From Candidatus Saccharimonadales bacterium (GTDB lineage Bacteria; Patescibacteriota; Saccharimonadia; Saccharimonadales; OMJO01): a stretch of 64,000 nt of DNA. The position numbers were made by a program, and so were the translations under genes. The stretch lies in the NCBI GenBank assembly GCA_035480035.1, contig DATIID010000008.1:9721-73720 (forward strand). Reading direction: 5' to 3'. Positions within the stretch are counted from its first letter, which is position 1. Each line of letters begins with the position of its first letter. The notes beneath the pieces were generated by a model. That model saw only the letters and a program-made list of their open reading frames with translations, had not been told where the DNA came from and did no database searches. Below are positions 3,033 to 63,244 of this stretch, in pieces.

Positions 3033-3326
3033 TCATTGTCCGGATGATTCTGGGCTCCGAAGTTTGGCCCGGCCATACTCGTGAGTATCGCGCACCAGTT
3101 CATCTTCCAACAGTAAAAATTCGTCTAAACTAATCTCGCCGGTTGTGACTGCCACACCCAAGTAAAAGCTGCGAAGCCTTAAATCATAAGGTACTTGGTC
3201 GTTTTCTGAATCCTTTCGAATTGATGCTTCGGTAATGAACCATGGTTCATCCGTCGGTACTTCAATATCATCGAATAAATCAGCTTTGGGATCGTAAACG
3301 TGACTGTTATCTATGGTTTCATCCAT
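3033..3326 (-). CDS. hypothetical acidic protein (97 aa)
   Basis: ORF with a canonical promoter placed directly upstream. No recognisable domain. Confidence 0.6.
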   Translation of the reverse strand: MDETIDNSHVYDPKADLFDDIEVPTDEPWFITEASIRKDSENDQVPYDLRLRSFYLGVAVTTGEISLDEFLLLEDELVRDTHEYGRAKLRSPESSGQ

Positions 3327-3332
3327 AACAAT

Positions 3333-3361
3333 ACTATAGCAATTATTACAACATTTGTCAA
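3333..3361 (-). promoter_or_regulatory. TTGACA-N17-TATAGT promoter with the -10 box 6 nt from the ATG (leaderless geometry)
   Basis: On the minus strand, TTGACA is at 3361..3356, the spacer is 17 nt, TATAGT is at 3338..3333, then 6 nt (attgtt), then the ATG at 3326. Confidence 0.55.
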
Positions 3362-3382
3362 TGTCGTGATGTCAATAAAAAA

Positions 3383-3402
3383 AGACCACAAGTATGAGGT
3401 CT
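3383..3402 (-). terminator. short hairpin plus U-tract, probable intrinsic terminator of the 3418..3636 gene
   Basis: The minus-strand RNA reads GAGACC-N10-GGUCUU followed by UUUUUU, just downstream of the stop at 3418. The stem is only 5-6 bp. Confidence 0.45.
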
Positions 3403-3417
3403 CTTTTTAACAAAAAT

Positions 3418-3636
3418 CTAAAGATTTTCGGTTGGTGCTACCGGAGCTGCTGGGTCAACAGGCATGCTACCATCGGATGGTGCATCGCCTTCTGGAGCTG
3501 GGCTCGGAGCTGGATCAGCGGCTGGTGCCGGAGCTGGTGCATCACCACCTACAGGTGGCATACCTACTCCTGGGTCCGCTGTTGGTAGACCTGCATCAGC
3601 TGGTGGTGTACCTGCGCTGTTATCGGCTGGATCCAT
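3418..3636 (-). CDS. hypothetical Pro/Ala/Asp-rich low-complexity protein (72 aa)
   Basis: GAAAGG lies about 10 nt upstream of the ATG and a terminator lies downstream. The strand matches its neighbours. The region is open in four frames because of GC-rich low complexity, so strand assignment rests on these signals. Confidence 0.5.
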   Translation of the reverse strand: MDPADNSAGTPPADAGLPTADPGVGMPPVGGDAPAPAPAADPAPSPAPEGDAPSDGSMPVDPAAPVAPTENL

Positions 3637-3715
3637 AATTTATGTACCTTTCTTAATTAGTTTAACTTCTTTATTTAAACAACTACCTTAATATACCCAG
3701 GATTTGACAGTTTGT

Positions 3716-4153: not shown

Positions 4154-6202
4154 TTACTGGACTTTATTTTCTTGTCCGAGTAACTTAGCCCGCAGTTCTT
4201 GGAAACGACGTTGTTGATCAGCCGCTAGATCTTCTGGCGATGGTTGTTTAGGTGCAACCACTTGCCCGTTTTGAGCCCTTTGTTGACTATTTTGGTCATT
4301 GCCATTGCCATTTGGCTTGCCACCACCAACGACATTTACAACTGGGATAACAATCGGGCTACGGCCAGTTTGTTCAAACAAGAAATGAGTCATATGATCT
4401 TTTAATTCGGCCTTGAACCGATCCAGATCAATCCGTTTAAAGCGCTGGCCAACTGCCCGCCGTAATTCGGCTCGGAAGTTGTTCATTAACTCCTCATTGT
4501 CTCTTATATATATGAATCCGCGAGTGATGATATCTGGACTGGTCAATAACTGGCCGGTCTTTTTATCAAGTGTCAAAACCACAGCTACCAAACCTTCTTC
4601 AGCTAACATCAGGCGGTCTTTAACAACCACATTACTGACCACGGCACCGGTTTGATCAACTAACAGACTGCCGTGCGGCACTTGGCCAGCATGTTCAATC
4701 TTGTCGGCGGTCAACATCAAGCTATCACCATTATTGGCTAGAATAACGTGATCGCGCGTCCAACCTTCTTCAATGGCTAGCTCGGCATGGTATTTACGGC
4801 GCAGAAATCCAGCATGAACTGGTATCACAAATTTCGGTCGAATAAGCTTAAGCATGTCACGCATCTCATCGCGACGAGCATGGCCTGACACGTGCAACGG
4901 ACCGCAACCATCTAGCTCATAGGTCGGGTGTCGAAACAAATGCAGACCCATCTTTGATAGACTATTACTTATCAGGTCGTAGCGAACCTCGTTGCCAGGG
5001 ATTGGCGATGAGCTAATCACTACCGTATCACCAGCTTTTAGTTTGATGTGTTTGTGTTCACCTTCACTCATACGCTGCAAAGCGGCGCCCGGTTCGCCCT
5101 GGCCGCCGGTACACATTACTAGTACTTTTTCATCTGGGAAATTGGAGATGTCACGCATGGCAACCATTGTGCCCTTTGGTACTTTTAAAATACCTTGACG
5201 GACAGCGATCTCGGCATAGCTCATCATGCTGCGACCATCAAAGGCAACCTTGCGGCCAGCTGCTACTGCAGCGTCGATAATCATTTGAATACGGTTCATG
5301 TTGCTCGAAAAAACTGCACAGAAGATTCGGCCGTGCGATTTGGCGATGACATCATGAAATGATTGCAATAGGGTGTGTTCGGTTGGCGTACGGCCTTCCG
5401 AGTCTGCATAACTACTCTCTGTGAGTAGTAATAGAACACCTTCGTCACCAAGTTGTTTCAGTCTATTGGTATCACTTGGCAGGTGATCCAGTGGTTCGGG
5501 ATCAAGCCGAAAATCGCCGGTGAAAATGATTCGGCCAACTGGCGTATCAATGCTGACCGAAGTGGCGTCCGGAATCGAGTGCGTGATACGGATTAGTTCG
5601 ATCATAAACACACCGACTTTGAGTTTCTCGTGATTGTCCATGTTCATAATTACCAGCTTGGGCGTGTAATGTTCGGTGCCATTAGGTACATCTTCAAAGC
5701 TTTTTTCGACAATTCCCAGGCTAAAGCGTGAGCCGTAAATTGGCGCTGGAAACATCGGTACAATGTGTTTCAAACCACCAATATGGTCCAAGTGTCCGTG
5801 GGTAACCACGTAGCCTTTAATTTTGTGGCGAATGGCTTCTAAATAGGTTGGGTCAGCAATTTCATAATTGATGCCGGGAAGATCAACGCCCAAGTTGTTG
5901 CCGCAGTCGACAATAATGGCATCGTTTTCATATTCTAAAATAGCTGTGTTTTTCTCGCCGACGTCATCTAAACCACCGAGGAAAGTCAGTTTGAGTTTGT
6001 TAAAGTCATCAACGATTACGTTGGCACGTTTTAATTTCTTAGTCTCGGCGCTGGCATATTCATTGACCAGTTTCTGGGCCATTTCGGAAGTCCGTTTTTG
6101 GGCACGAATAGCTGCCCCACGGCTGGCCCGTGGCGCCGCATGTGCACCTGGATTGGTCGGTCGAGTTGGTCTTGACTGATTGTTAGGTTGTTTGGGATTC
6201 AT
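4154..6202 (-). CDS. rnj: ribonuclease J (metallo-beta-lactamase / beta-CASP family) with low-complexity N- and C-terminal extensions
   Basis: HGHLDHIGG motif and the RNase J domain order. Basic N-terminal and Gln/Asn-rich C-terminal extensions. Confidence 0.9.
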   Translation of the reverse strand: MNPKQPNNQSRPTRPTNPGAHAAPRASRGAAIRAQKRTSEMAQKLVNEYASAETKKLKRANVIVDDFNKLKLTFLGGLDDVGEKNTAILEYENDAIIVDCGNNLGVDLPGINYEIADPTYLEAIRHKIKGYVVTHGHLDHIGGLKHIVPMFPAPIYGSRFSLGIVEKSFEDVPNGTEHYTPKLVIMNMDNHEKLKVGVFMIELIRITHSIPDATSVSIDTPVGRIIFTGDFRLDPEPLDHLPSDTNRLKQLGDEGVLLLLTESSYADSEGRTPTEHTLLQSFHDVIAKSHGRIFCAVFSSNMNRIQMIIDAAVAAGRKVAFDGRSMMSYAEIAVRQGILKVPKGTMVAMRDISNFPDEKVLVMCTGGQGEPGAALQRMSEGEHKHIKLKAGDTVVISSSPIPGNEVRYDLISNSLSKMGLHLFRHPTYELDGCGPLHVSGHARRDEMRDMLKLIRPKFVIPVHAGFLRRKYHAELAIEEGWTRDHVILANNGDSLMLTADKIEHAGQVPHGSLLVDQTGAVVSNVVVKDRLMLAEEGLVAVVLTLDKKTGQLLTSPDIITRGFIYIRDNEELMNNFRAELRRAVGQRFKRIDLDRFKAELKDHMTHFLFEQTGRSPIVIPVVNVVGGGKPNGNGNDQNSQQRAQNGQVVAPKQPSPEDLAADQQRRFQELRAKLLGQENKVQ

Positions 6203-6227
6203 TAGTTCTCCTTAAATTAATATTGTT

Positions 6228-9302: not shown

Positions 9303-9569
9303 TTATTTCCGAAGTCCAAGTTTTTTGACGAGTTTCAAATAAGCTGTGCTATCTTCTTCGGCTAAGTATTTAAGCAGTTTTTTGCGCTTACCAACCATCT
9401 GAACCAAACCCCGTCGAGCCATGAAGTCATGCTTGTTGGTCTTCATATGAGCCGTAACTTCAGCAATACGTTTGGTCAAAATACCAACCTGCACCTGAGG
9501 CGAACCGGTGTCTTCCTTCTTGGTTGCCAAATCGGCAATAACTGCCTTTTTATTCTCACTCGTTATCAT
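9303..9569 (-). CDS. rpsO: 30S ribosomal protein S15
   Basis: Full-length S15 (GSPQVQVGILTKRI...HDFMARRGLVQMVGKRKKLLKYL). Conserved rpsO-pnp pair. Confidence 0.97.
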   Translation of the reverse strand: MITSENKKAVIADLATKKEDTGSPQVQVGILTKRIAEVTAHMKTNKHDFMARRGLVQMVGKRKKLLKYLAEEDSTAYLKLVKKLGLRK

Positions 9570-9613
9570 ACTTCAGCTACATTCTAGCATACTTCTATCT
9601 GTTAATCAAGTGT

Positions 9614-10364: not shown

Positions 10365-11048
10365 TCAAGCAGTAGCAATTAGGTTATTTGAGATTTTTTC
10401 GGCAGAAATATTTTCAACTTCAACAGCGTTTTTTATTGTGAAATCTCCGACTTGGGTGCGGCGGAGGTCACTCATATAGGCACCCGCGCCGAGTTTTTGA
10501 CCGATATCTTCTACCAGACTACGAATATATGTGCCGCTGGAAACTTTAGTAGTAAACTTCACGATTGGATATTTATAATCGGTAATTTTTAAGGAGTAAA
10601 TTGTGACTTGGCGAGGTTCTAATTTAACTTCTTTACCCTGCCTTGCCAGTTTGTAGGCCCGTTGGCCATTAACTTTTATAGCTGAGTAGACCGGTGGAGT
10701 TTGCTCGATTTGTCCGATAAATTGTTCAACCATCTTTTGAACTTCAGCTGGAGTTGGCTGATGAGTACTTATTTGAGTCTTCTCGCCTTCATCATCGCCC
10801 GTAGTGCTGGTTTCACCCAACTTCATAGTGACTTCATAGACTTTATCGAGCTTTGATAATTCAGTGGCCTTTTTGGTGTAACTGCCGACTAAAATCACTA
10901 ATAAACCGGTCGCTAACGGGTCTAGTGTGCCAGTGTGGCCAACTTTTACCTTTGTGCCAGTTAACTGACGAATAATTGACCGAGTCTTGGCCACCACATC
11001 AAAACTCGTCCACCCTTTCGCCTTATCAACCAACAAAACACCGTTCAT
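10365..11048 (-). CDS. truB: tRNA pseudouridine(55) synthase
   Basis: GHTGTLDPLATGLLVILVG catalytic motif and TruB length. Confidence 0.95.
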   Translation of the reverse strand: MNGVLLVDKAKGWTSFDVVAKTRSIIRQLTGTKVKVGHTGTLDPLATGLLVILVGSYTKKATELSKLDKVYEVTMKLGETSTTGDDEGEKTQISTHQPTPAEVQKMVEQFIGQIEQTPPVYSAIKVNGQRAYKLARQGKEVKLEPRQVTIYSLKITDYKYPIVKFTTKVSSGTYIRSLVEDIGQKLGAGAYMSDLRRTQVGDFTIKNAVEVENISAEKISNNLIATA

Positions 11049-11075
11049 AGACTACTAATTATAGAGGAAAATTTA

Positions 11076-14392: not shown

Positions 14393-15273
14393 GACTTAAC
14401 CTTCTGGCATTTGGGACATAGGTGGGTGCCGCGTCCAGCGACTCGGATTTTGATGATGGTTGTGTCGCAGCGTGGACAGCCTAAACCATTGCGTCGGAAG
14501 ACTTTGGCAAAGCTTAAATAGCTGCCACGTTTACCATCAGCGTCAACATAATTGCGATCCGTTGAGCCGCCTTTTTCGATTGCTAATTTCAGTACATAGC
14601 GAAGTTGTTCAAATAATGTGTTCAACTTGCGTGGACCGATGTTTTTAACTAAGGTTTTAGGATGAATTTTAGCTCCCCAGAGGCTTTCATCGGCATAAAT
14701 ATTGCCGACTCCGGCAATCACCGATTGGTCCAAAAGTGCGGCTTTAACAACCGAATTTGGTCGCCTTTTCAGCCGCTCGGCAAAGTCTTTAGCCGTGAAA
14801 TCATCGGCTAAAGGTTCAGGTCCGATTTTTTTGAAAAAATCGATATTTGGTACTTCAGCCGTAGGAAGCAACCGCACCCAACCAAACTTCCGTTGGTCGT
14901 TAAAAAACAATTTGGCGCTGTCCTGCCGTTTTGCCAAGCTCAAAATTACATGTGTGGTTTTGTCTGGCAAGTCGCCGACCAATGAATTGTTCGGATGACC
15001 GGCTCCCCAGCGGTCTTTTTCACTGCGATAAACTAGCTGTCCCGTCATTTTAAGGTGGATTACTAGTGAATATTTACTGCTTAGCTCTATTAACAGAACT
15101 TTAGCACGACGTTTAACTAAGACGATTTTGGCACCAATCAGAAACTGCTCAACAGCCTCATTAGAATTAGGAAAACTTTTGGGCCAATCAAACCAGACAT
15201 CGGTAATTTTTTGACCGATAATCCTATTCTCCAGCCCACGACGAACTGTCTCAACCTCAGGCAACTCTGGCAT
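14389..15273 (-). CDS. mutM: formamidopyrimidine-DNA glycosylase
   Basis: MPELPEVETVRRGL N-terminus, H2TH, and the C-terminal zinc finger CPRC...CPKC. Confidence 0.95.
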   Translation of the reverse strand: MPELPEVETVRRGLENRIIGQKITDVWFDWPKSFPNSNEAVEQFLIGAKIVLVKRRAKVLLIELSSKYSLVIHLKMTGQLVYRSEKDRWGAGHPNNSLVGDLPDKTTHVILSLAKRQDSAKLFFNDQRKFGWVRLLPTAEVPNIDFFKKIGPEPLADDFTAKDFAERLKRRPNSVVKAALLDQSVIAGVGNIYADESLWGAKIHPKTLVKNIGPRKLNTLFEQLRYVLKLAIEKGGSTDRNYVDADGKRGSYLSFAKVFRRNGLGCPRCDTTIIKIRVAGRGTHLCPKCQKVKS

Positions 15274-15370
15274 AACTCTATTTTACAGTAGTGATCGTAT
15301 GTAAAATTACCTACAAACTCAGCAACTTGATATACTATTAACATTAGTTCGATACAATAAACGTTAAGAT

Positions 15371-15712: not shown

Positions 15713-15739
15713 CCCGTCCAAATCTTTTATAATACTAAT

Positions 15740-15979
15740 ATGGAAAGTTTAGGCGGTCTGCTTGGCCAGCAAAAATTTGTTGAGCCACCCGAAATAGCGG
15801 CAATTAAAGATTACGTGCAGACCAAGTATAAGTCGCCTGTTAGTATTAAAATCGGCGATAAACAGATTACCATTATCACAAGTAGTGCGGCGCTAGCCGG
15901 CACATTACGCTTAGAACTCCACACTCTTCAAGAACAGCTAAAAACAGAGAAAAAATTAATTATTAGGATTGGCAGTTAA
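15740..15979 (+). CDS. small conserved protein, possibly DUF721-like (79 aa)
   Basis: The C-terminal pattern ITIITSSAALAGTLRLELHTLQEQL resembles DUF721. TATAAT at 15728..15733 lies 6 nt upstream of the ATG. Confidence 0.45.
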   Translation: MESLGGLLGQQKFVEPPEIAAIKDYVQTKYKSPVSIKIGDKQITIITSSAALAGTLRLELHTLQEQLKTEKKLIIRIGS

Positions 15980-16242: not shown

Positions 16243-16644
16243 TCAACCCATAAGCGGTTCTAACTCATTTTTCATCTGCTCAAAGTCATGATAAACAATC
16301 ACCTGCATACCGACTGCTCGAGCACCATCAGCCAAAGACTTCATATCGTCAATGAAGACACATTCCGACGGTTCTACCCCTAACTTCTGGCAAACGATTT
16401 GGTAAGCTTCAGGATCAGGTTTAGTGTAGCCGATTTCACTACTAGCCGCGGCAAAGTCAAAATACTCATCCTTCGGATGAGATTTATTAAAAATTTTAGC
16501 TAAGAAATCACGATCTATATTTGATAACATCGCTGTCTTAAATTTTGGCCGCAGTTTTTTTATATAATCGAGTAATGATTCATCAATGGCGCCATCAACA
16601 TAAATCACGCCAAAACAATCGAAAATAACCGCTTTTATCACCAC
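16243..16644 (-). CDS. HAD-superfamily hydrolase, compact (133 aa), minimal cap
   Basis: Motif I is VIFDCFGVIY, with MLSN, KPDPEAY and FIDDM following. GTG start. Confidence 0.75.
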   Translation of the reverse strand: MVIKAVIFDCFGVIYVDGAIDESLLDYIKKLRPKFKTAMLSNIDRDFLAKIFNKSHPKDEYFDFAAASSEIGYTKPDPEAYQIVCQKLGVEPSECVFIDDMKSLADGARAVGMQVIVYHDFEQMKNELEPLMG

Positions 16645-16658
16645 CTCAGTCTAACAAA

Positions 16659-17240
16659 TTATTGATCAAACACGCCGCCAGTAAAGTCAGCGTAATCAGT
16701 CAATTGCATTTGCATTAGTTCACGTACGGCTGGACCACTACCAGCAAATGGACCAATCGCAGCATCACAACTGGTACTCCAGGTATCACTAACCAGCTGG
16801 CCAGTGTCATCATAAAGCTGGTAAATATAGATATTACCACCAGCACAAACACCACGGTAATCAGTAATCGCGCTTGGGCGCTTTAAAGTGAAGCCAGTGC
16901 CATTAAGCGCACGAATGAAGTAAGTAAAGGCTGTTTGGTTATTTTTATAGTGTTTCTCTTTCTCAACAGTCTGGTTATAGCCATCTAGAACTGACATGCT
17001 ACGATCATCGGCACTTATCGTCATATTAATAGCCCGACGCTTCTCGTCACCGACAATCGGGCCAAGAGTAGTCACTGAAACGCTAGCATCTTTGTCCTGA
17101 TAATCTAACAGACTAATAACCTTATTCTTGGCAGTAGTCTTTTTAGTAGATTTACCACCAGGATGCGACACAATTACAGCAACGGCCACACATGCTAAGA
17201 CAACAATACCTAGGGCAACTCCAAAATACTTCGAATTCAT
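16659..17240 (-). CDS. membrane-anchored hypothetical protein (ORF track starts at 17249)
   Basis: N-terminal TM helix followed by an extracytoplasmic domain with Cys residues. The TATAAT box abuts the first ATG, so the ATG at 17240 (MNSKYFG) is the more plausible start. Confidence 0.6.
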   Translation of the reverse strand: MNSKYFGVALGIVVLACVAVAVIVSHPGGKSTKKTTAKNKVISLLDYQDKDASVSVTTLGPIVGDEKRRAINMTISADDRSMSVLDGYNQTVEKEKHYKNNQTAFTYFIRALNGTGFTLKRPSAITDYRGVCAGGNIYIYQLYDDTGQLVSDTWSTSCDAAIGPFAGSGPAVRELMQMQLTDYADFTGGVFDQ

Positions 17241-17249
17241 AACCAGCAT

Positions 17250-17278
17250 ATTATAGCATTATGTTAATGCTTTTGCAA
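17250..17278 (-). promoter_or_regulatory. TTGCAA-N17-TATAAT promoter, 9 nt upstream of the ATG at 17240
   Basis: On the minus strand, TTGCAA is at 17278..17273, the spacer is 17 nt, and TATAAT is at 17255..17250. Confidence 0.55.
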
Positions 17279-17294: not shown

Positions 17295-18041
17295 CTAGCC
17301 CTGCCCGTCATCTGTTACGTTCCAATTATTATAACTAACACCTGGAATCGGTTCATTTGGGCGATTGTTAGCTCGAAAAGTTAGTGATATCCGATCATCA
17401 ATCACATTATCGACACGATGTTCTGGTCTTAAATCATGATACCAACTGCCGTGCAAAAAACCGCCTCTCAGAATTATCATGTCACCTGGCCCGACATACA
17501 GTTTTTTAGGTTCTTCGGTCTCATACATTCGGTGATAAATTTCAGCTTGACCGGATATGCTGGCTGACACGATTAAGCCTTGGTGTCTTTCATTATCTTT
17601 ATGCCAGGTCAGGCCGGTTTCACCCTGGTCATAACGCTGAGCCACGGCTTCATCAACTTCCCAATTTGCCAGCATCGGAAAAATACCATCTAGTGAATGA
17701 ACTAGCGATTTGGCCCTTCTAGCTAAACTAATAATGCCAATCTCGGCCTCACTATCAACATCAGTAAGTTGACTCATTTTAAGTGCGTAAGTACTGAAGT
17801 TTTGGGTGACTTCAATCCCACGCTGATTAACAAACTTTTGCCGTGCATCCAGCCATTCCACCGAGGGATTAGTTAGTCGACTATATAACTCTTGGCATTC
17901 GTCTTTAGAAATAGCGTTTGGGATGTATAAGACACCGCTGCCCTCTGGCTCTAGCTCGTCTCGAACCCTATCCAAAAACTGGGTTACTTCCAGCATAGAT
18001 TCGCCGGCCACCCGGTCTAAAAATTTACTTTCTCCAGCCAC
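17295..18041 (-). CDS. AlkB-like Fe(II)/2-oxoglutarate dioxygenase
   Basis: The HxD motif (WHKD), the distal His (PEHRV) and the RISLTFR motif match the AlkB signature (RINLTFR in E. coli). The start is uncertain: GTG at 18041 or ATG at 17996. Confidence 0.7.
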   Translation of the reverse strand: MAGESKFLDRVAGESMLEVTQFLDRVRDELEPEGSGVLYIPNAISKDECQELYSRLTNPSVEWLDARQKFVNQRGIEVTQNFSTYALKMSQLTDVDSEAEIGIISLARRAKSLVHSLDGIFPMLANWEVDEAVAQRYDQGETGLTWHKDNERHQGLIVSASISGQAEIYHRMYETEEPKKLYVGPGDMIILRGGFLHGSWYHDLRPEHRVDNVIDDRISLTFRANNRPNEPIPGVSYNNWNVTDDGQG

Positions 18042-18103
18042 ACCATCATTTTAATATTTTTGCCACTATGATACTAGAGGTAAATGTGTATTATAGTGAA
18101 ATC

Positions 18104-18664
18104 ATGACCAAGATTGATTTGGCTTTTAAGGCTTTGAAGCGCGTTAATTTCTTACCACCAACAGCTAAACTGTTGGCTGGTTTTGATATGCCCTTGTCAA
18201 TTGGCCACAGCCAAACTAACAGTCAGCCAACTACGGTGCATCGAATGCTTGAATGGCTAGACCCTCAGTCTGGTGATAAAATCCTGGACATCGGTAGCGG
18301 CTCCGGCTGGACAACTGCTCTACTAGCTCATATTGTTGGCCCCAAGGGACAAATTTACGCTGTTGAGCGAGTACCAGAATTAGTTGAGTTTGGTCGCAAA
18401 AATGCTACTAAAGCCGGTGTTAAAAATGCTGAGTTTTCCCAGTCAGGTAAAAAGTTTGGTTTACCCGAATACGCGCCCTTTGACCGAATATTGGTCAGCG
18501 CCAGTGCTGATAAGTTCCCTGCTGAGTTACTTGACCAACTCAAACCTGGTGGCAAATTGGTCATACCTGTCCAAAGCTCAATTTTAGAAGTTACAAAATC
18601 TAAAAATGGCCAAATCAAAACTAATGAACACCCTGGTTTCATTTTCGTCCCACTAATAAAGTAA
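18104..18664 (+). CDS. pcm: protein-L-isoaspartate O-methyltransferase
   Basis: ILDIGSGSGWTTALLAHIVGPKGQIYAVE SAM-binding motif. I prefer the ATG at 18104 (TATAGT at 18092..18097 lies 6 nt upstream). The ORF track starts at 18068. Confidence 0.9.
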   Translation: MTKIDLAFKALKRVNFLPPTAKLLAGFDMPLSIGHSQTNSQPTTVHRMLEWLDPQSGDKILDIGSGSGWTTALLAHIVGPKGQIYAVERVPELVEFGRKNATKAGVKNAEFSQSGKKFGLPEYAPFDRILVSASADKFPAELLDQLKPGGKLVIPVQSSILEVTKSKNGQIKTNEHPGFIFVPLIK

Positions 18665-20051: not shown

Positions 20052-20573
20052 CTAAATTCTCGTTGCCTTACGCATCGCCATTTCGTCCCAAACAATATTT
20101 TGGGTGGCTCTACTTGTCAATTTTACCTCTCGATCGTTACCAAAGCCAACCTCAATATAACTGCCAAAATCATGCTTACGTTTAGTAAACGGTATTTCTT
20201 TTTCGGTTAATTCGTCTTTGGTTTTGTCATAATCAACTCGGTAAAAGCCGACGTGATCTAAACCAATGCGATCCTGCCCCTTTGACTTTGGTTTTGGCTC
20301 TGAAATCCTCACCCAATCAATTGGGCCGAATGGCGGCAGAGCTATAGTGCCGAGCAATTCAGCTGTGGCAACCAATCGATCGTCACGTCTGACGGCGGTT
20401 ATCTCGTGTGACATCGGCCGAAATTTCTCAATTAACTTATTGAAATCATCTTCATCGGCCGCTTTTAAGGCAAGGTAATCCGGCATACGGTTGAAAACTT
20501 TTAGGCCAGTCTGGTGGCGAAAATCATTCAGTTCTTGAGCATAATCACCTAATTGTAGCTCTAGCTCTTTCAT
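20052..20573 (-). CDS. VOC-fold YecM-like protein (paralog 2; ORF track starts at the TTG at 20612)
   Basis: PDYLALK...WVRISEPKPKSKGQDRIGLDHVGFY aligns residue for residue with paralog 1. The ATG at 20573 gives the same N-terminal length. Confidence 0.65.
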   Translation of the reverse strand: MKELELQLGDYAQELNDFRHQTGLKVFNRMPDYLALKAADEDDFNKLIEKFRPMSHEITAVRRDDRLVATAELLGTIALPPFGPIDWVRISEPKPKSKGQDRIGLDHVGFYRVDYDKTKDELTEKEIPFTKRKHDFGSYIEVGFGNDREVKLTSRATQNIVWDEMAMRKATRI

Positions 20574-20618
20574 AGTTAACTCATAATAACACCTGTAAAA
20601 CCGACTAACCAAAAGCGC

Positions 20619-21185: not shown

Positions 21186-21195
21186 TTCGCATTCA

Positions 21196-21771: not shown

Positions 21772-21794
21772 ATCGGACTAATCATAGCACTGGG

Positions 21795-22238: not shown

Positions 22239-22253
22239 TTGCTCTTAATCATA

Positions 22254-22940: not shown

Positions 22941-22992
22941 TAATGTATATTATAACATCTTAATGTTAATTGGTCAGGCCTCAATCATAGAA

Positions 22993-23970: not shown

Positions 23971-23994
23971 CTCACTTTAATATAGCACCTTATC

Positions 23995-27484: not shown

Positions 27485-27565
27485 CTTTAATTATAGCGCT
27501 AACAGAGAAAATATGATATTCGGGTTTATTTGCTAACTTCGGTGACTGTTATACTGGAGTTATTC

Positions 27566-37740: not shown

Positions 37741-37746
37741 TAACTC

Positions 37747-39117: not shown

Positions 39118-39121
39118 AAGC

Positions 39122-41959: not shown

Positions 41960-41983
41960 TGTTTAAAGTATAACAAAAGGAGC

Positions 41984-42664: not shown

Positions 42665-42707
42665 AACCGCTTAAGTATAGCATCTAACAGATTAGGCCAT
42701 AACATCG

Positions 42708-42713
42708 TATAAT
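42708..42713 (+). promoter_or_regulatory. TATAAT -10 box 6 nt upstream of the ATG at 42720 (leaderless geometry)
   Basis: cgTATAATataggcATG read directly. The -35 region is weak. Confidence 0.45.
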
Positions 42714-42719
42714 ATAGGC

Positions 42720-48485: not shown

Positions 48486-48908
48486 TTAACCTTCGGGTAG
48501 AGCGTCAAACTTTAAGTTTAGCTGATCGGTAACTCCACATATCTCAAGGGTACGTTTTAAAGTTGGATCTAGATTTCTAACGCTAAAATCGACGCCCATA
48601 CTTTTACATAAATTAGTTGTGTCTAAGAGCAGTTTTACAGTTCGGCTATCAACAAAAGTTAGTGCACAAGCTTCGAGCTCAAGGCTGTCGCCAGGCTGAC
48701 TATAAAGATGGAATCGATCGAGATAGTGGCTTAACGTTTGAGCTGACTCCAAATTTAATGCACCATAAACCATAAAAGTCGTCCGGTCTGGTTCGACTGA
48801 AATAAACAGTTCGGAATCTTCCCGACTCTCTGTTAAAGCTATAGATTCATTTGGCCCAGTCGATCTGAGTGGACTATCTTCAAAATTTTCACCAAATTCT
48901 GTCATCAA
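48486..48908 (-). CDS. STAS-domain protein (anti-sigma-factor-antagonist-like)
   Basis: The C-terminal 100 aa show the SpoIIAA/STAS pattern (LELEACALTFVDSRTVKLLLD...LKRTLEICGV). No partner kinase or phosphatase is nearby. Confidence 0.6.
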   Translation of the reverse strand: MMTEFGENFEDSPLRSTGPNESIALTESREDSELFISVEPDRTTFMVYGALNLESAQTLSHYLDRFHLYSQPGDSLELEACALTFVDSRTVKLLLDTTNLCKSMGVDFSVRNLDPTLKRTLEICGVTDQLNLKFDALPEG

Positions 48909-48954
48909 GCAAATAATACAACAATATTAAAATTTTGCAAGGTGTGCTAGAGTA

Positions 48955-54231: not shown

Positions 54232-55256
54232 CGTGGTCGTCTTGGATCTTCTTTAGGTGGTGTAAGTTGTCTTTTAGCAAGCTTAAATTCATCAAAGTCA
54301 TCAAAACCATTTAAGCGTACAGCTCTTGAATCAAAATCTTTCTCATCACGTTTAATCGAAGGTACGACTAAAACTTTGTGTTCACGAACATCTTGACCAA
54401 GTTGGACCATCTCTTTTCTAAGTTGTGCGCTTTTAGGGTCAAAACCCGGCAGAGTTGTACTTAAAAACCAAGCACCCAGACGTTGTCGGGCACTGTTTGA
54501 TTGGCGAGAGCGTCGTTCATCACGATTAGCGACTCCACGGCCCAGCTGACTGTTTTCTTGATACCAGACTGGTAAATCAGCGTTGCCGGTAGCACTACCC
54601 TTCTGAATAACGCCTTTCATCCAGTGGCTTGTAGCAATATCGGCCCTGGGGAAAGCTCTTTTCATAAATTTCTCTGCGATTGTCAACGTACGACCAGATG
54701 AATAAACTTCATCGACCACTAGAACGGTTTTATCATCAAGTTCGGTTGGTCGACGGTCAATTTCTGGAGTTAAACCATGGGTTAATTCTTTACCATCAAC
54801 AAAGATTGAACGTAAACTTCTAATGATACTTTGGTCAACATGGTCAATGTCAACAGCACCTTGACCGTGTGGGTCAATTGTATTAATCCACTGTTCACGA
54901 TCTATGTTTAGAAATCGAAATTCCGGTAGTTCTGGTACATTACCGTCTTCATCTGCGGCTAAAGTTGGCCACAATTCCTTCGTCAACCAAGATACTGGCC
55001 GAGCCGACTTATCCAACCAAATAACATAGTCTGGCTTTTTAACTTCTTCTTCACCGGTTTCATGATTTGTAACTCTAACACCCTCGGTCATTTGACGTAT
55101 TAATTCGTCAGTTAGTGAAACATATTGAGTGTGTAACTCTTCGCTGCTTTTCATGCTCCCATCGGTCCGACGATGGGCCACTAGGAGTTCATAGTCACTG
55201 TGTGGTTGTGGCTCAATTTCAGGACTCGACTGAGGTGAAAATGCTGTTTCGGGCAT
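54228..55256 (-). CDS. hypothetical protein with a phosphoribosyltransferase-type PRPP-binding motif
   Basis: VLVVDEVYSSGRTL matches the PRTase PRPP loop. The rest is unrecognised. Confidence 0.55.
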   Translation of the reverse strand: MPETAFSPQSSPEIEPQPHSDYELLVAHRRTDGSMKSSEELHTQYVSLTDELIRQMTEGVRVTNHETGEEEVKKPDYVIWLDKSARPVSWLTKELWPTLAADEDGNVPELPEFRFLNIDREQWINTIDPHGQGAVDIDHVDQSIIRSLRSIFVDGKELTHGLTPEIDRRPTELDDKTVLVVDEVYSSGRTLTIAEKFMKRAFPRADIATSHWMKGVIQKGSATGNADLPVWYQENSQLGRGVANRDERRSRQSNSARQRLGAWFLSTTLPGFDPKSAQLRKEMVQLGQDVREHKVLVVPSIKRDEKDFDSRAVRLNGFDDFDEFKLAKRQLTPPKEDPRRPR

Positions 55257-55303
55257 ATCCTTATTTTAGCATAAATTCTTATGTTTTACAATATTATTGC
55301 TTA

Positions 55304-56626
55304 CTAGTTAACTAGAGTACGTGAACGAAGCGCTTGGTGGGCTTGTTCGATTTCATTCCATGGGTGTTCACCATCAGCATGTTCAATAGTTTTTTCGTGA
55401 CCCTTTCCCAATAATAACACCGTGTCGCCAGTTTTGGCACGGTTGATGGCAAATTGAATTGCTTGTGGTCGATCGTGAACCAAGAACAGGTCTTTGTCTT
55501 GGACTTTGCCGGATCTCTCTGCCCCGACGGTAATATCTTTCATAATGTCGGCTGGATTTTCTTGGCGATCGTCCTCTTCGCAAACAATCACTTCATCGGC
55601 GTATTTGCCCGCAATTTCACCCTGCAAGGGTCGCTTGGTTATATCGCCACCACCTAGACTGCCAAAAAGCGCAATAATTTTACCTGTGGTCATCGGTTTC
55701 ATATCTTTAAATAACTTCTCAAAACTGTCAGGAGTGTGGGCATAGTCAACTATCACTTTGAAATCCTGACCTTCGTCAATTGGTGTCATCCGGCCTTCCA
55801 CTTCTTTTAAGCTCGCAATGCCCTGCTCAATTTGGTGGCGGCTAAGGCCAATTACCACACCAACAGCAGCGGCAGCCAAAGAGTTTTCGATATTGAAACT
55901 ACCGGGCAAATTGCACTTAATTCGGAGCTCTTGCGGTTCCGCCTTGGGTTGTACCAACATCGCCCGATATTCACTGCCAGTCGGTGTTTGATGAATATCA
56001 GTGGCTCTTAAATCACCACTGTTAATTCCGTAAGTAATGGCTCTCTCAATATCGTTTTTGAATAGTCCAGCACTGGGATCATCGGCGTTAATCACACCAA
56101 CGCGTAAGCCATTACGGTTTTTGTTAGCCAGCTTGAATAATTTACGCTTGGCATCGCGATATTTCTCAAAAGTACCGTGATAGGCGATATGTTCGTGCGT
56201 AACATTGGTCATGACCGCGACGGAAAATGGCACGCCCCAGGTGCGGTGCTGGGCTAAGCCTTGAGAGGTTGTTTCCAAAACTACCCAGTCGACCCCCTGC
56301 TCTTTCATCCACTTCAAACGCCGCATCAGTTCGGGCATCGGCTGACTGGTCATGTGGTGCACTTGCTGATGAATGTCCTCGTTAACACCGTAGGCAACCG
56401 TGGTCATCAAGCCGCTTTTAAGCCCAGCTGACCTGAGCATCTGATGAATCATAAAACAAGTTGAGGTTTTGCCGTTGGTGCCAGTAACACCAATAACTTT
56501 TAAGCCCTTGCCCGGGAAACCGCTGATGGCATTGTACAAAATCCCCTCACCCATGTGACCATATGGCTCAATCACCGGAAAAACACTTTTGGGAATAACT
56601 TTTTTAACGACTGTTCTGACGCCCAT
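55304..56626 (-). CDS. murE: UDP-N-acetylmuramoyl-L-alanyl-D-glutamate--diamino-acid ligase (MurE)
   Basis: GVTGTNGKTST P-loop and the Mur ligase middle and C-terminal domains. The canonical DNPR motif is replaced by EDDRQENP, so substrate specificity is unclear. I prefer the ATG at 56626. The ORF-track start at 56719 would overlap tsaD. Confidence 0.88.
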   Translation of the reverse strand: MGVRTVVKKVIPKSVFPVIEPYGHMGEGILYNAISGFPGKGLKVIGVTGTNGKTSTCFMIHQMLRSAGLKSGLMTTVAYGVNEDIHQQVHHMTSQPMPELMRRLKWMKEQGVDWVVLETTSQGLAQHRTWGVPFSVAVMTNVTHEHIAYHGTFEKYRDAKRKLFKLANKNRNGLRVGVINADDPSAGLFKNDIERAITYGINSGDLRATDIHQTPTGSEYRAMLVQPKAEPQELRIKCNLPGSFNIENSLAAAAVGVVIGLSRHQIEQGIASLKEVEGRMTPIDEGQDFKVIVDYAHTPDSFEKLFKDMKPMTTGKIIALFGSLGGGDITKRPLQGEIAGKYADEVIVCEEDDRQENPADIMKDITVGAERSGKVQDKDLFLVHDRPQAIQFAINRAKTGDTVLLLGKGHEKTIEHADGEHPWNEIEQAHQALRSRTLVN

Positions 56627-56638
56627 ATCTAGAGATAC

Positions 56639-56646
56639 AGTATACT
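56639..56646. promoter_or_regulatory. palindromic AGTATACT giving a TATACT -10 box on both strands in the 27-bp murE/tsaD spacer
   Basis: Plus-strand TATACT at 56641..56646 lies 7 nt from the tsaD GTG at 56654. Minus-strand TATACT at 56644..56639 lies 12 nt from the murE ATG at 56626. Confidence 0.4.
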
Positions 56647-56653
56647 TGGTTTT

Positions 56654-57715
56654 GTGAAAATATTGGGAATTGAAACTAGTTGTGATGAAACTGCTGCCGC
56701 TGTGATTGAAGACGGCCACAAATTACTATCCAATGTTGTGGCCAGTTCAATGGATTTGCACGCCATTTACGGTGGTGTAGTGCCGGAAATTGCGGCGCGT
56801 AGTCATATTGAATCAATCATGCCGGTTATTGAAGAAGCTCTCCAAACTGCCAAATGCCAGTGGTCAGACATTGATGGGATTGCCGTCACTCAAGGTGCTG
56901 GATTAGGTGGTTCCCTGTTAATTGGCGTTTTAACGGCTCGAACTCTAGCCATTATCAAAAATAAGCCGCTTTACGCTATCAACCACGTTGAGGGTCACCT
57001 CTACGCTAACTTCTTAACCAAAACGGCTCTAAAGGGCTATAAATTGCCAACGGACGCACCGAAATTCCCCCTGCTTGGCCTAATTGTTAGCGGTGGTCAT
57101 AGCCAACTGGCTTATTTCAGAAACCACTTTGACTATGATCTGCTCGGGCAAACTGGCGACGATGCAATCGGTGAAGCTTTTGATAAGGTCGCTAAAATTC
57201 TGGGCCTGCCCTACCCTGGCGGCCCAAGCATCGGCCAAAAAGCCCTCGATGGTAATCCTCATAAATATCTGTTGCCAAAAGCCAAGATGACCGAAAAGTA
57301 CGACTTCAGCTTTAGTGGCTTAAAAACCGCTGTTTTAAGGCTGGCTCAAGCCGAATGCGGCAAATCATATGATTTCCCCTCGTCTAAGCTATCTGATCTG
57401 TTATCTGAGGCTCAGAAAGCCGACATTGCGGCTAGCTTTCAATACACTGCAATTGAAACGGTAGTTGATAAAACTGTTAAAGCTTTTGAAGAATTTAAAC
57501 CTAAAAGTGTCATCATCGGCGGCGGCGTAGCTAGTAGCCCAGAATTACGTCGTCAATTATCGCTTCGACTCTCCTTGCCTATCAGTTACACTGACCCCAA
57601 ACTGTGCACTGACAACGGTGCCATGATCGCCACTCTTGGCTGTTTTAAAATGAAACTCAAACAACCCACAGCCGACCCTCACAAACTCGATATCGCTCCT
57701 AACCTATCTATGTAA
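56654..57715 (+). CDS. tsaD: tRNA N6-adenosine threonylcarbamoyltransferase
   Basis: KILGIETSCDETAAAV N-terminus, HVEGHL, SGGHS. GTG start. Confidence 0.95.
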   Translation: MKILGIETSCDETAAAVIEDGHKLLSNVVASSMDLHAIYGGVVPEIAARSHIESIMPVIEEALQTAKCQWSDIDGIAVTQGAGLGGSLLIGVLTARTLAIIKNKPLYAINHVEGHLYANFLTKTALKGYKLPTDAPKFPLLGLIVSGGHSQLAYFRNHFDYDLLGQTGDDAIGEAFDKVAKILGLPYPGGPSIGQKALDGNPHKYLLPKAKMTEKYDFSFSGLKTAVLRLAQAECGKSYDFPSSKLSDLLSEAQKADIAASFQYTAIETVVDKTVKAFEEFKPKSVIIGGGVASSPELRRQLSLRLSLPISYTDPKLCTDNGAMIATLGCFKMKLKQPTADPHKLDIAPNLSM

Positions 57716-60526: not shown

Positions 60527-61374
60527 TCTTCTAGCTCTAACGCGCTACGGACCCGATCAGTTGATTCACCTACCCGATAATCATCAAACCATAGCACGTG
60601 CCAGCCCATTTTTTCAGCAGCCATTAAATTAGCCCGCGAATCGTCAACCAGCAAGATTTCGTCTGCCGGAACACCGGCCTTTTTCTGGGCAATTTCATAG
60701 ATTTCTGGCTCCGGTTTAATGGCTCCTACCTCTGAGGAATCAACAATTACGGTGTAGCTCACGTTTGGTAATTTCTCTCGGGCAAACAAGGCACTTATGA
60801 AGCCGGGCATAATGTTGCTTAACAGGCCAACATGGTAATTTTCGGCCGCCCAAGCTACCAAAGGCTGCATTTCATCAATGGCATCGACAGCATCCAGGTA
60901 ATAGGCCTGCCAATCAATGGTTTTGATACCCAATCGCTCGGCGAAAGCCTTATCAAATTCATCAACACTCATTTTGCCACGGCAAACCGCGTCGTTGTTG
61001 TGCCAAAAAGTTGATTCAATCACGTCAGCCGGGGCGCCAGTATCTTCGGCCAATCTGGTAAAAGCTCGGTGGAAAAAGCGTACCAAACAGCCATTGATAT
61101 CAAAATAGATGAAGCGAATGCCGCTTTTAGAGCGCTTTTTGAGTGAGCTGGCAGAATTAGTCGGTTCGCCCATTAACTCGCTTAGACTCACCCCTAAAGC
61201 GCTGGCGATACTTTGAATTGTAAAAATAGACGGTGATTTAATGGCGCCACGTTCAATCTTGGCCAAAGTTGAGTAGCTGAGACCAGCCTTTTGACAGAGC
61301 TGCTGCTGAGTTAAGCCAGCCTTTTTTCGGGCATTTTGTAGACCACGACCTAAACTGACTTCGTCTATACTCAT
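60523..61374 (-). CDS. fusion protein: XRE-family HTH domain plus HAD-superfamily hydrolase domain
   Basis: N-terminal LTQQQLCQKAGLSYSTLAKIERG (HTH_3), then the HAD motifs FDINGCL, LLSN, KPEPEIY and LVDDS. I prefer the ATG at 61374. The ORF track starts at the TTG at 61410. Confidence 0.75.
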   Translation of the reverse strand: MSIDEVSLGRGLQNARKKAGLTQQQLCQKAGLSYSTLAKIERGAIKSPSIFTIQSIASALGVSLSELMGEPTNSASSLKKRSKSGIRFIYFDINGCLVRFFHRAFTRLAEDTGAPADVIESTFWHNNDAVCRGKMSVDEFDKAFAERLGIKTIDWQAYYLDAVDAIDEMQPLVAWAAENYHVGLLSNIMPGFISALFAREKLPNVSYTVIVDSSEVGAIKPEPEIYEIAQKKAGVPADEILLVDDSRANLMAAEKMGWHVLWFDDYRVGESTDRVRSALELED

Positions 61375-61454
61375 TAACCCTATGATACTAATTAAACAGG
61401 TTAAATCCAAGCAAAACTAGCACTAAACGGCTAGTTTGGTTATTTTGGTTTTGC

Positions 61455-61649
61455 TTATTTATTCCACCACTCAGGCAGCAGGGCTAGGATGCCAAGGATC
61501 AATAGGTAGCAAACAACGAACGAAACCCCAGCAATGGTACCGGCAGTTCTAACATCTGATGATGTTGAACGCATCATTTTGGTGTACATCCATGTAGAAA
61601 AGCCAAAGCTTATAATCCCGCCGATTGTTAAATTCTGACTGCTAAACAT
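61455..61649 (-). CDS. small two-TM membrane protein (64 aa)
   Basis: TATGAT at 61661..61656 lies 6 nt upstream of the ATG at 61649. Two hydrophobic helices. Confidence 0.5.
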   Translation of the reverse strand: MFSSQNLTIGGIISFGFSTWMYTKMMRSTSSDVRTAGTIAGVSFVVCYLLILGILALLPEWWNK

Positions 61650-61672
61650 AAGCTCATCATAACATTAAGTGG

Positions 61673-62065
61673 CTAAAATGCTAATCGTTTGGCAATCTCG
61701 GCCAGAGCAGGGTGATCCGGTTCGGCCGTCATATCAACAATCGTTCGGTATTGTTGAAGTGTATCGAAGGGAAAAACGTGAATATGAGCATGTGGCACAT
61801 CGAGTCCAATCACATGAATACCAACTCGTTTGCGACCAAGAACGGCTTTTTGGCGCTTCGCAACCTTTTGAACAGCTGCCCAAACTGCGACATAGTCTTC
61901 ATCTTTTAGATCTTGAAATTCATCAACTTGAGCTTTGGGCACCACTAAAACGTGGCCGGGTTGGATCGGATGAATATCTAGGAAGGCGATGGTCTTATCG
62001 TCTTCATAAACTTTGTGAGCTGGAATTTCACCTTTGATAATCTTAGTGAACACGCTATCTTCCAT
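61673..62065 (-). CDS. HIT-family (histidine triad) nucleotide hydrolase
   Basis: FTKIIKGEIP...VPHAHIHVFP (HxHxHxx). Confidence 0.9.
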   Translation of the reverse strand: MEDSVFTKIIKGEIPAHKVYEDDKTIAFLDIHPIQPGHVLVVPKAQVDEFQDLKDEDYVAVWAAVQKVAKRQKAVLGRKRVGIHVIGLDVPHAHIHVFPFDTLQQYRTIVDMTAEPDHPALAEIAKRLAF

Positions 62066-62131
62066 AATTTTAGTCTGTCATTCGATTAAATTTGTTGCAA
62101 GTTTTTGCAGGCCATGCTTTACAATACGCTT

Positions 62132-63244
62132 ATGCACATTCTGCGCAAAATTACGCTCTGGTTTACTAGTGCAGTTTTTCGCTTCTTCCTCCTGACGACT
62201 GCCATTGTCGGCACGATAGTTATGTTATTTGGGACACCTATTCACATCAAACAAATCCTTAAAGATAACGATGTTTACAGTAACTTCGTTGACGGCATTA
62301 TCGCTGATGCTCGCAAAAGCCCAGACGCCAAATCAAACGATTCGTTCCCAATCAACGACCCAGTGTTCCAAAAAGCCATCAAAAGTTCATTTACACCGGA
62401 GTTTTTGCAAACCAGTACCGAAAATGTAGTCGATGGCACTTACCATTGGCTAAACGGCAAGACAGCCGAGCCGGACTTTAGGATCGATGTTTCTGGGCCA
62501 AAGAAGAAATTTGCCAATGCAATTGGTGATTATGCAGTTACGAAATTAAGTGCTTTGCCTATTTGCAATCGGCAACAGCTGCGCCAACTACAGTTGGCCG
62601 GCGGTACAATTGATCCCTTTAGCGCAACTTGCCGCCCGCCCGGTTTTAATGTAGCTGACCAGAAAGCCAAAGTAGTAAGTAAAATCCTGAGCGACAAAGA
62701 TTTCCTAAATAAAAGTGTCATTACAGCTAATTCTCTGAAGAAAGATCAGGGTGACCAGAACTTTTTCGAAGACAAAAGAATTATTCCAAAAGTATACGGT
62801 TGGATAAATATTTCGCCATTTATCATGGGTGTAATCTTGTTACTGCTGGCTACGGCTATTGTATTTCTTCACGAAACCAAGCGAAAGGGTTTACGAAGTG
62901 TGGGCCTTCGGTTAACTGAAACCGGGGTATTTCTAGGAGTTGTCGGCTTAATAACAGCAATTCTTTACCGAAATGCCAGCAAACCGGATGGTCCAATTGG
63001 CAAAGCAATTGGTAGTAACAGTTTCCAGCAAACGATTTCTAAAGTATTGACTGCTTTTGTACAGCTATTCAACGCTCGACTGGTAGTCTTTGGCCTAATA
63101 TATATCGTCATCGGTTCAATTATTTTGGTTTATCTGTATCTTAGTCGAGATAAAAATCCGACAGCATCAAAACCAACATCTACTTCTAAGCCACCAACTC
63201 CACCACTAACATCAACTAAACCGACCAAGGTTAAAGTTCAATAA
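62132..63244 (+). CDS. membrane protein, unknown function (ORF track starts at the TTG at 62105)
   Basis: An N-terminal TM helix, a large loop and three C-terminal TM helices, with a Pro/Thr/Lys-rich tail. TACAAT at 62120..62125 lies 6 nt upstream of the ATG at 62132. Confidence 0.6.
   Translation: MHILRKITLWFTSAVFRFFLLTTAIVGTIVMLFGTPIHIKQILKDNDVYSNFVDGIIADARKSPDAKSNDSFPINDPVFQKAIKSSFTPEFLQTSTENVVDGTYHWLNGKTAEPDFRIDVSGPKKKFANAIGDYAVTKLSALPICNRQQLRQLQLAGGTIDPFSATCRPPGFNVADQKAKVVSKILSDKDFLNKSVITANSLKKDQGDQNFFEDKRIIPKVYGWINISPFIMGVILLLLATAIVFLHETKRKGLRSVGLRLTETGVFLGVVGLITAILYRNASKPDGPIGKAIGSNSFQQTISKVLTAFVQLFNARLVVFGLIYIVIGSIILVYLYLSRDKNPTASKPTSTSKPPTPPLTSTKPTKVKVQ

Follow-up and report, generated by a model that had tools for sequence, protein, structure and literature searches.

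Start-codon-adjoining extended -10 motifs suggest probable leaderless or near-leaderless mRNAs beside a Shine-Dalgarno gene class in a Saccharimonadales genome

A 64,000-nucleotide stretch of a Candidatus Saccharimonadales metagenome-assembled genome (MAG; assembly GCA_035480035.1, contig DATIID010000008.1, positions 9,721 to 73,720), referred to here as the window, carries two kinds of signal upstream of its genes. About a third of the genes have a -10 box 6-9 nt before the start codon and no Shine-Dalgarno (SD) sequence. In ~30 of ~77 genes this is an extended -10 element (TGnTAtaaT, with a weak or absent -35 element) that ends, with its last T, 6-9 nt before the start. A second set of ~27 genes has AGGAG-type SD sites, which would be carried on leadered or polycistronic mRNAs. 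The explanation that very probably applies is that the first set is transcribed from extended -10 promoters adjoining the start codons, giving leaderless or near-leaderless mRNAs beside the SD class. Sigma-70 holoenzyme would begin transcription 6-8 nt downstream of the hexamer, so that transcripts would begin at the start codon's own A or G where the spacer is 6 or 7 nt (N6-N7) and 1-3 nt upstream of it at N8-N9 sites (1-5 nt over the whole N8-N12 range). Such mRNAs would lack both a 5' untranslated region (UTR) and an SD site, and ribosomes would load directly on the 5'-terminal AUG or GUG. A preliminary description of the window had proposed transcripts of this kind from 18 starts, with two initiation modes side by side; every computational test made here favours that interpretation, and the window appears to hold both modes.

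The window has a GC content of ~44% (0.42-0.46) and is densely packed, with intergenic gaps that are often 10-60 nt. Genes were taken mechanically as non-overlapping long open reading frames (ORFs), each opened at the first ATG, GTG or TTG following the upstream stop, which gave 78 genes whose start choice is blind to the hexamer motif. A strict hexamer was defined as TAnnnT with at least two of the three middle bases as in TATAAT, and its spacer (d) as the number of nucleotides from hexamer to start codon. By these definitions, 21/78 genes have a strict hexamer at d=6-9, compared with 2-5 genes in all other 4-nt offset bins and 6 for the reverse-complement motif. When candidate starts anywhere within the first 25 codons are admitted, 29/78 genes are positive, and the other offset bins hold 4-11. 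Among the results that the preliminary description had named as counting against it were hexamers no more frequent than an AT-rich background would give. Shuffling each 40-nt upstream region 2000 times with dinucleotides preserved gave a mean count of 2.64 (sd 1.57) and a maximum of 10, against the 21 observed (z = 11.7), and the excess is replicated in 80 relatives. A gene-model-free scan, which looked for a strict hexamer followed by an ATG or GTG opening an ORF of at least 60 aa, returned 11, 9, 3 and 10 hits at d=6, 7, 8 and 9 over a background of ~2.6 per offset. The same pipeline applied to 50 kb of Escherichia coli K-12 as a negative control found 0/42 annotated starts positive. Unbiased 6-mer enrichment in positions -20..-1 of the window recovered exactly two families, AGGAG-type and TATAAT/TATACT.

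Curation of the window yielded 18 N6-N7 sites, 12 N8-N9 sites, 4 short-leader N10-N12 sites, ~27 SD genes and ~15 genes with neither signal. TGn stands directly upstream of the hexamer in 19/34 of these sites and a consensus -35 in 2/34 only. For the 18 starts proposed earlier, the 45 nt upstream of each were extracted and inspected. The hexamer and spacing at all 11 N6/N7 sites were exactly as described, as were the TTGACA-N17 elements at 3326 and 36260, and no listed site had a usably spaced SD core of 4 nt or more. The N8-N9 variant was accurate at six of seven starts; the seventh, 27484, has its TATAAT at N5 from the GTG named, and N8 applies to the ATG at 27481. About a dozen sites were added to that list: 15273, 16641, 18041, 41959, 48905, 55256, 61374, 11048, 20573, 30376, 39122 and 42664. 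SD-like purine runs occur within the spacers of 16641 (GAGGTG), 55256 (AAGGA) and 61374 (AGGG), too near the start for SD function. A generic two-hexamer -35/-10 scan gave a weak enrichment (53 vs 38.8±5.4) and was not counted as evidence, the promoters here being extended -10 ones whose -35 is poor. Terminator-like sites were not enriched in the window (24 vs 19±4), and operon ends therefore cannot be defined from them. One candidate was dropped as spurious, a 65-aa ORF at 63651-63848 with TATACT at N5 before its ATG, which overlaps a tRNA-Ser(CGA) gene at 63689-63778 on the minus strand (ARAGORN and Rfam).

The identity of the hexamer was examined in a pool of 242 hexamers at d=6-9 from the window and the 80 relatives, with identical hexamers inside genes as background. 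At positions that had not been selected for, T at -15 has a frequency of 0.60 and G at -14 of 0.59 (background 0.24 and 0.31), A at -9 reaches 0.89 vs 0.56, and a weak TTG is seen at -35 to -33. This TGn profile is the extended -10 signature, which would be read by sigma-70 region 3. The genes in the pool start with ATG in 220/242 cases (91%), with GTG in 17 and with TTG in 5. The same motif is also found 19-30 nt upstream of SD-led starts, such as those of groES and PGI and at 4063, 44974, 46326 and 63624, a distance at which only a promoter is possible. An origin of the hexamers in upstream stop codons (TAA/TAG) was considered and rejected: T at -10 is 0.74 vs 0.73 in the background, and TATACT and TATAAT dominate among orthologs. 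These observations support the hexamer as a putative sigma-70 -10 promoter element, neither AT-rich noise nor a ribosome-binding site.

The pattern extends across Saccharibacteria. A PurC-seeded (22993-23970) scan of genome contigs returned no confirmed relatives, and GroEL (51239-52885, minus strand) was used as seed in its place; its next relatives are Saccharibacteria at 80-84% identity. The GroEL-seeded scan of GTDB species representatives gave 80 Saccharibacteria species loci of up to 21.6 kb each, with 1338 ORFs of at least 100 aa under mechanical first starts. In these, strict hexamers number 78, 67, 42 and 41 at d=6, 7, 8 and 9, then 22 and 24 at d=10-11, and ~13 elsewhere; at d=3-5 they fall to 8, 6 and 6. 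The depletion covers 2-5 nt and the lower edge at 6 nt is hard, which fits a requirement that the transcription start must not fall downstream of the start codon. Enrichment at d=6-9 is 4.2-fold in the sense orientation vs 1.6-fold for the reverse complement, which is nearly flat over the offsets, with 91 vs ~56 expected at d=6-9.

Ortholog N-termini aligned by tblastn indicate that each gene family keeps its predicted initiation mode across 30-70 species. For tsaD, TAnnnT at N6-10 is found in 45/47 species and SD in 1/47; for argS, the corresponding counts are 31/32 and 0/32. At the other extreme, groES is -10-proximal in 0/72 species and SD-led in 66/72, and PGI is -10-proximal in 3/60 and SD-led in 40/60. 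The sequence flanking the conserved hexamers is otherwise divergent among orthologs. The -10-proximal fraction (any candidate start allowed; control 7-12%) is 37% in the window, 26% in relatives with at least 79% GroEL identity, 24% at 75-78%, 15% at 70-73% and 19% at 68-69%. In a sub-lineage of six loci (L060, L062-L066; GroEL ~72% identical, GC 0.44-0.55 and mostly given as ~0.54) the fraction is 10%, equal to the control level (7-11% for these loci), with SD at 49%. Use of the two modes therefore differs between Saccharibacteria lineages. A different arrangement is seen at a DDAH-like gene, 53323 (+), where TACAAT lies 27 nt upstream and the leader has no clear SD; TAnnnT at N6-10 occurs in 18/24 of its orthologs (L003-L082), which suggests that this gene has changed between leaderless and leadered forms.

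Several start codons are anchored independently of the motif. The TsaD start is fixed by its conserved MKILGIE N-terminus, which is to our knowledge universal (E. coli TsaD: MRVLGIETSCDET). With TATACT at N7 from this fixed start, a transcript made from that hexamer would have a leader of at most ~1 nt. Pfam domains begin at residues 4-12 in ArgRS, PolA, Orn and S15. The starts 18104, 34838, 62132 and 17240, which the preliminary description had put forward as re-annotations, are identical to those of the proteins that the Prokaryotic Genome Annotation Pipeline (PGAP) predicted for this MAG in NCBI nr. Exact-sequence look-up matched them to HSX45209.1 (186 aa), HSX45227.1 (216 aa), HSX45262.1 (370 aa) and HSX45207.1 (193 aa), respectively, and the additional site 48905 to HSX45248.1 (139 aa), so that the start used by PGAP (GeneMarkS-2+) is the -10-proximal codon in 5/5 cases tested. 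Because PGAP already uses the four proposed starts, they are agreements with GenBank and not new corrections. Longer forms starting at 18068, 62114 and 17249 are present in Logan calls. GeneMarkS-2 models leaderless genes explicitly and is a component of PGAP (PMC6028130).

The SD class is well defined in the same window. The SD sites described earlier for rpsF, RNase J and groES are present, and groEL, rpsT, rpoD, mscL and others are SD-led as well. On the minus strand, rpsF (173..578) and RNase J (4154..6218) both have AAGGAG-N5-ATG, rpoD (31873..33015) has AGGAGG-N5-ATG, and the segment 52883..53185 holds the starts of groES (53168, GGAGG-N5-ATG) and groEL (52885, AAGGAG-N10-ATG). By Pfam annotation this class comprises rpsF (S6), rpsT (S20), RNase J, PNPase, rpoD, groES/groEL, mscL and PGI, and the -10-proximal class comprises tsaD, argS, polA, truB, purC, pcm, an Orn-type exonuclease, VanY, ftsK, regulators and many small hypothetical proteins. 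We infer that SD marks highly expressed genes. The two signals very nearly exclude one another, occurring together in 7 genes vs ~69 expected. The RpoD encoded in the window, which has sigma-70 regions 1.2, 2, 3 and 4, is the factor expected to read TGnTAnnnT. Its gene adjoins dnaG (31873-34749, minus strand), an arrangement like the classical macromolecular-synthesis operon; the SD-led rpoD start lies 10 nt past the dnaG stop, and no clear SD or strict -10-proximal hexamer precedes dnaG.

A number of observations weigh against a strictly leaderless interpretation. The N8-N12 sites imply leaders of 1-5 nt and not of zero. The -35 elements are mostly poor, and promoter strength therefore cannot be judged. 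GTG is the start codon at five of 30 window sites, and leaderless mRNAs with GTG are poorly translated by E. coli and used by Mycobacteria. Two sites are ambiguous: 27566 has both signals, with GGAG also 6 nt before its ATG, and the start at 30376 is overlapped by 4 nt by the upstream ATPase ORF, where translational coupling could be an alternative to a leaderless start. Gene order is a further point. Among 226 -10-proximal genes, 118 are preceded by a gene on the same strand, at a median distance of 41 nt (108/226 have a divergent neighbour), and the window terminator scan found no intrinsic terminators in those co-directional spacers. It is therefore probable that read-through transcripts also include these ORFs as internal genes and would coexist with the leaderless ones. 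Gene order is likewise the strength of an account in which the hexamers are real but secondary internal promoters, most protein being made from read-through polycistronic transcripts via SD-independent initiation, termination-reinitiation or 70S scanning. It accommodates the co-directional run 20573-23970, where the gaps measure 10-54 nt and the promoters lie in or just past the preceding gene's last codons. This account overlaps with leaderless expression and does not exclude it. We nevertheless regard it as unlikely, since it leaves unexplained the hard 6-nt limit, the depletion at 2-5 nt and the conserved spacing in tsaD and argS, and since many of the sites belong to divergent first genes (18041/18104, 37708/37747, 42664/42720, 56654).

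It is quite improbable that TAnnnT acts instead as a non-SD translation signal on leadered mRNA, for instance as an A/U-rich S1 or standby site like that of GeneMarkS-2 group B. The hexamer does stand at the usual distance of a ribosome-binding site, in place of an SD, and some lineages of the Candidate Phyla Radiation (CPR) lack the anti-SD sequence (PMC9297842). However, the T-A-n-n-n-T pattern, the TG at -15/-14 and the TTG at -35 are recognition features of RNA polymerase, and the identical motif 19-30 nt before SD-led genes could not be a ribosome-binding site. Loss of the anti-SD was reported only in a Parcubacteria subgroup in that CPR ribosome study; the strong SD class of the window agrees with this, and the abundance of SD genes in the window indicates a functional anti-SD. 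There is also very little to be said for mis-assigned start codons, with true starts downstream behind an SD within the ORF and a normal leadered mRNA. Several hypothetical proteins have N-termini that are unverifiable, and weak SD-like cores precede the downstream candidates 36212, 17996, 11033, 22865 and 30385; these cores are only 4-5 nt long and badly spaced, and the conserved TsaD N-terminus, the early Pfam domains of ArgRS, PolA, Orn and S15 and the concurring PGAP starts all speak for the upstream codons. Chance, by which AT-rich spacers and upstream stop codons would yield TAnnnT near starts, has on its side the mild rise of the reverse complement at d=6-9, which suggests local AT-richness or divergent promoters. 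As an explanation of the sense-strand excess it is effectively refuted by the shuffles, none of which exceeded 10 against the 21 observed, by the 4.2-fold vs 1.6-fold strand difference, by TG at -15/-14, by conservation among orthologs and by the E. coli control.

The architecture is that of GeneMarkS-2 group C, a well-known mechanism that the NCBI pipeline already models implicitly. In group C, 25-50% of transcription units have a Pribnow box at 6-8 nt from the start; according to the main text of the paper, Actinobacteria and Deinococcus-Thermus often belong to the group, whereas Proteobacteria and Firmicutes rarely do (PMC6028130). Like the leaderless genes of Actinobacteria (Mycobacterium tuberculosis, M. 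smegmatis, Streptomyces, Corynebacterium), the window genes have a -10 box at about this distance and no SD, with SD sites elsewhere, and both ATG and GTG as 5'-terminal starts, which in the window are putative. The differences are that the lineage is Patescibacteria/CPR (Saccharimonadia), which the main text of PMC6028130 does not name for group C, that the window promoters are mainly of the extended -10 (TGn) type, and that the sites appear not to be confined to operon-first genes, about half of them lying 10-55 nt behind a co-directional gene with the promoter embedded in that gene's end. A similar combination is known from Deinococcus deserti and Deinococcus-Thermus, where many genes have a -10 box adjoining the start, plus an SD class (de Groot 2014, as cited in PMC6028130). 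There it was verified by differential RNA sequencing (dRNA-seq) and N-terminal proteomics, whereas the present case is built on sequence statistics and comparative conservation.

Other known systems share single features with the window. In archaeal leaderless transcription (group D), the mRNA likewise begins at the start codon and the promoter stands at a fixed distance from the ORF, but the element is a TATA box/B recognition element at ~-26 read by TBP/TFB, in contrast to a sigma-70 -10 hexamer at -12 to -7. The non-SD initiation of Bacteroidota and the wider Fibrobacterota-Chlorobiota-Bacteroidota (FCB) group (group B) also leaves many genes without SD. Its motif precedes every gene, those inside operons too, and lies on leadered mRNA, whereas the window motif is a putative promoter with TG and -35 features that alternates with a strong SD class, as the absence of -10-proximal groES illustrates. 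The extended -10 promoters (TGnTATAAT) of E. coli and Gram-positive bacteria have the same motif, with TGn, a -10 and a weak -35, and region 3 is present in the RpoD of the window; here the motif is special only in its placement relative to the start codon. Full-text searches, which also covered transcription start sites (TSS) in Saccharibacteria, returned incidental reference-list co-occurrences only, and no paper tying leaderless mRNAs to Saccharibacteria, TM7, Patescibacteria or CPR. A set of 188 TM7x TSS was used in PMC12641261, and a TM7x transcriptome preprint does not deal with TSS, UTRs or promoters.

A broader and decidedly tentative proposal, which we think may well fail, is that Saccharibacteria have largely swapped operon and SD for one minimal extended -10 promoter per gene, set in or after the preceding gene's last codons or back to back in divergent spacers of 27-62 bp. 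Monocistronic leaderless mRNAs would then supply most of the non-abundant proteins, and the choice between leaderless and SD-led initiation would be a conserved, lineage-variable setting of the expression level of each gene family. If so, leaderless initiation would be a streamlining strategy of ultrasmall CPR genomes, and the trait might be one held in common with their Actinobacteria hosts and Terrabacteria relatives, or matched to these. For annotation, Prodigal-type callers misplace several starts here, as the Logan forms at 18068, 62114 and 17249 exemplify, and PGAP finds the -10-proximal ones. Prodigal is the gene caller of most CPR MAG studies, and systematic errors may therefore exist in the N-termini, signal peptides and small proteins called for Saccharibacteria. 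Saccharibacteria have become genetically tractable only recently, and TGnTATAAT-N6/7-ATG as a candidate native expression unit, with SD-led cassettes as the high-expression class, would aid construct design. In evolutionary terms, the window would add a deep-branching, genome-reduced lineage to the leaderless-rich bacteria, hitherto Actinobacteria and Deinococcus-Thermus. Conservation of the mode per family over a class bears on the evolution of initiation and on whether leaderless initiation accompanies ribosome and genome reduction.

Among the N6-N7 sites, start 3326 (-) is adjoined by a full-consensus promoter, TTGACA-N17-TGcTATAGT-N6-ATG (3324..3361), before a gene for a 97-aa hypothetical protein. 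Upstream of this strongest consensus promoter (3333-3361) lies a 389-nt non-coding gap, 3327-3715, unusually long for this genome and without a match in Rfam; its only ORF is Gly/Ala-rich, 75 aa long and on the opposite strand (3464-3691). The other consensus -35 belongs to 36260 (-), with TTGACA-N17-TAGAAT-N7-ATG (36258..36296) and a 138-aa hypothetical protein. Further minus-strand sites are 15273, TAAAAT-N6-ATG (15271..15285), of an Fpg/Nei-type DNA glycosylase; 16641, TGtTAGACT-N6-GTG (16639..16653), of a HAD hydrolase; 41959, TGtTATACT-N7-GTG (41957..41972), of arginyl-tRNA synthetase (argS); 48905, TATTAT-N7-ATG (48903..48918), of the STAS-domain protein HSX45248.1; 55256, TGcTAAAAT-N6-ATG (55254..55268), of a phosphoribosyltransferase-domain protein; 61374, TATCAT-N7-ATG (61372..61387), of an HTH-HAD protein, 36 nt inside the mechanical TTG ORF; and 61649, TGtTATGAT-N6-ATG (61647..61661), of a 64-aa ORF. 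On the plus strand, 15740 opens a 79-aa ORF behind TATAAT-N6-ATG (15728..15742), 34838 opens the gene of the 216-aa protein HSX45227.1 behind TGtTACAAT-N7-ATG (34825..34840), and 62132 opens that of the 370-aa HSX45262.1 behind TACAAT-N6-ATG (62120..62134).

Three pairs of -10-proximal promoters stand back to back, at 37706-37749, 18039-18106 and 42662-42722, between genes 38, 62 and 55 nt apart. In spacers this short, the -35 region of each promoter runs into the -10 or the start region of its partner. The first pair joins an RNase T/Orn-type exonuclease gene (37708, -; TGaTATACT-N7-ATG, 37706..37721) to that of a VanY D-Ala-D-Ala carboxypeptidase (37747, +; TATAAT-N6-GTG, 37735..37749). In the second, a 2OG-Fe(II) oxygenase gene (18041, -; TAAAAT-N6-GTG, 18039..18053) diverges from pcm (18104, +; TATAGT-N6-ATG, 18092..18106). 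The third consists of a DUF1361 protein gene (42664, -; TGcTATACT-N9-ATG, 42662..42679) and a CDP-alcohol phosphatidyltransferase gene (42720, +; TATAAT-N6-ATG, 42708..42722). An even tighter divergent arrangement is that of a Mur ligase gene (-), with TATACT-N12-ATG at 56624..56644 and 56626 as its probable true start, and tsaD (56654, +), with TATACT-N7-GTG at 56641..56656; 27 nt separate the two (56624-56656), and the tsaD start is the one fixed by the conserved M-K/R-I-L-G-I-E N-terminus. Their hexamers overlap in the palindrome AGTATACT, which supplies a TATACT -10 on both strands (56639-56644 and 56641-56646), and the region has the look of a minimal bidirectional promoter. Conservation of the palindrome as a bidirectional element was tested and rejected: GTATAC occurs in only 4/17 relatives with the same divergent arrangement, and the shared palindromic -10 is thus a local feature.

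The other short-leader (N10-N12) sites precede ftsK (3016, -; TGaTATAAT-N10-ATG, 3014..3032), rpsO (S15), which has no SD (9569, -; TGcTAGAAT-N11-ATG, 9567..9586), and a P-type ATPase gene (27566, +; TGtTATACT-N10-ATG, 27550..27568). The N8-N9 class includes truB (11048, -; TATAAT-N9-ATG, 11046..11063), the gene of the 193-aa protein HSX45207.1 (17240, -; TGcTATAAT-N9-ATG, 17238..17255), polA (27481, -; TATAAT-N8-ATG, 27479..27495), an AAA/adenylate-kinase-like gene whose hexamer lies within the upstream ATPase ORF (30376, +; TGaTACAAT-N9-ATG, 30361..30378) and an HxlR-type regulator gene (39122, +; TATACT-N9-ATG, 39107..39124). The remaining members form the minus-strand run 20573-23970. It comprises purC, encoding SAICAR synthetase (23970; TGcTATATT-N8-ATG, 23968..23984), hypothetical protein genes at 22940 (TGtTATAAT-N8-ATG, 22938..22954), 22238 (TGaTATGAT-N9-ATG, 22236..22253; 15-nt gap from the upstream gene) and 21771 (TGcTATGAT-N9-ATG, 21769..21786), a serine hydrolase gene behind a 10-nt intergenic gap (21185; TGcTATGAT-N9-ATG, 21183..21200) and the gene at 20573 (TGtTATTAT-N9-ATG, 20571..20588), whose start is that of a 173-aa Logan gene call. 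Three genes in succession, 21185, 21771 and 22238, share TG(c/a)TATGAT-N9-ATG, and at 21185 the TGA stop of the upstream gene (21196-21771) falls inside the TATGAT hexamer at 21195-21200.

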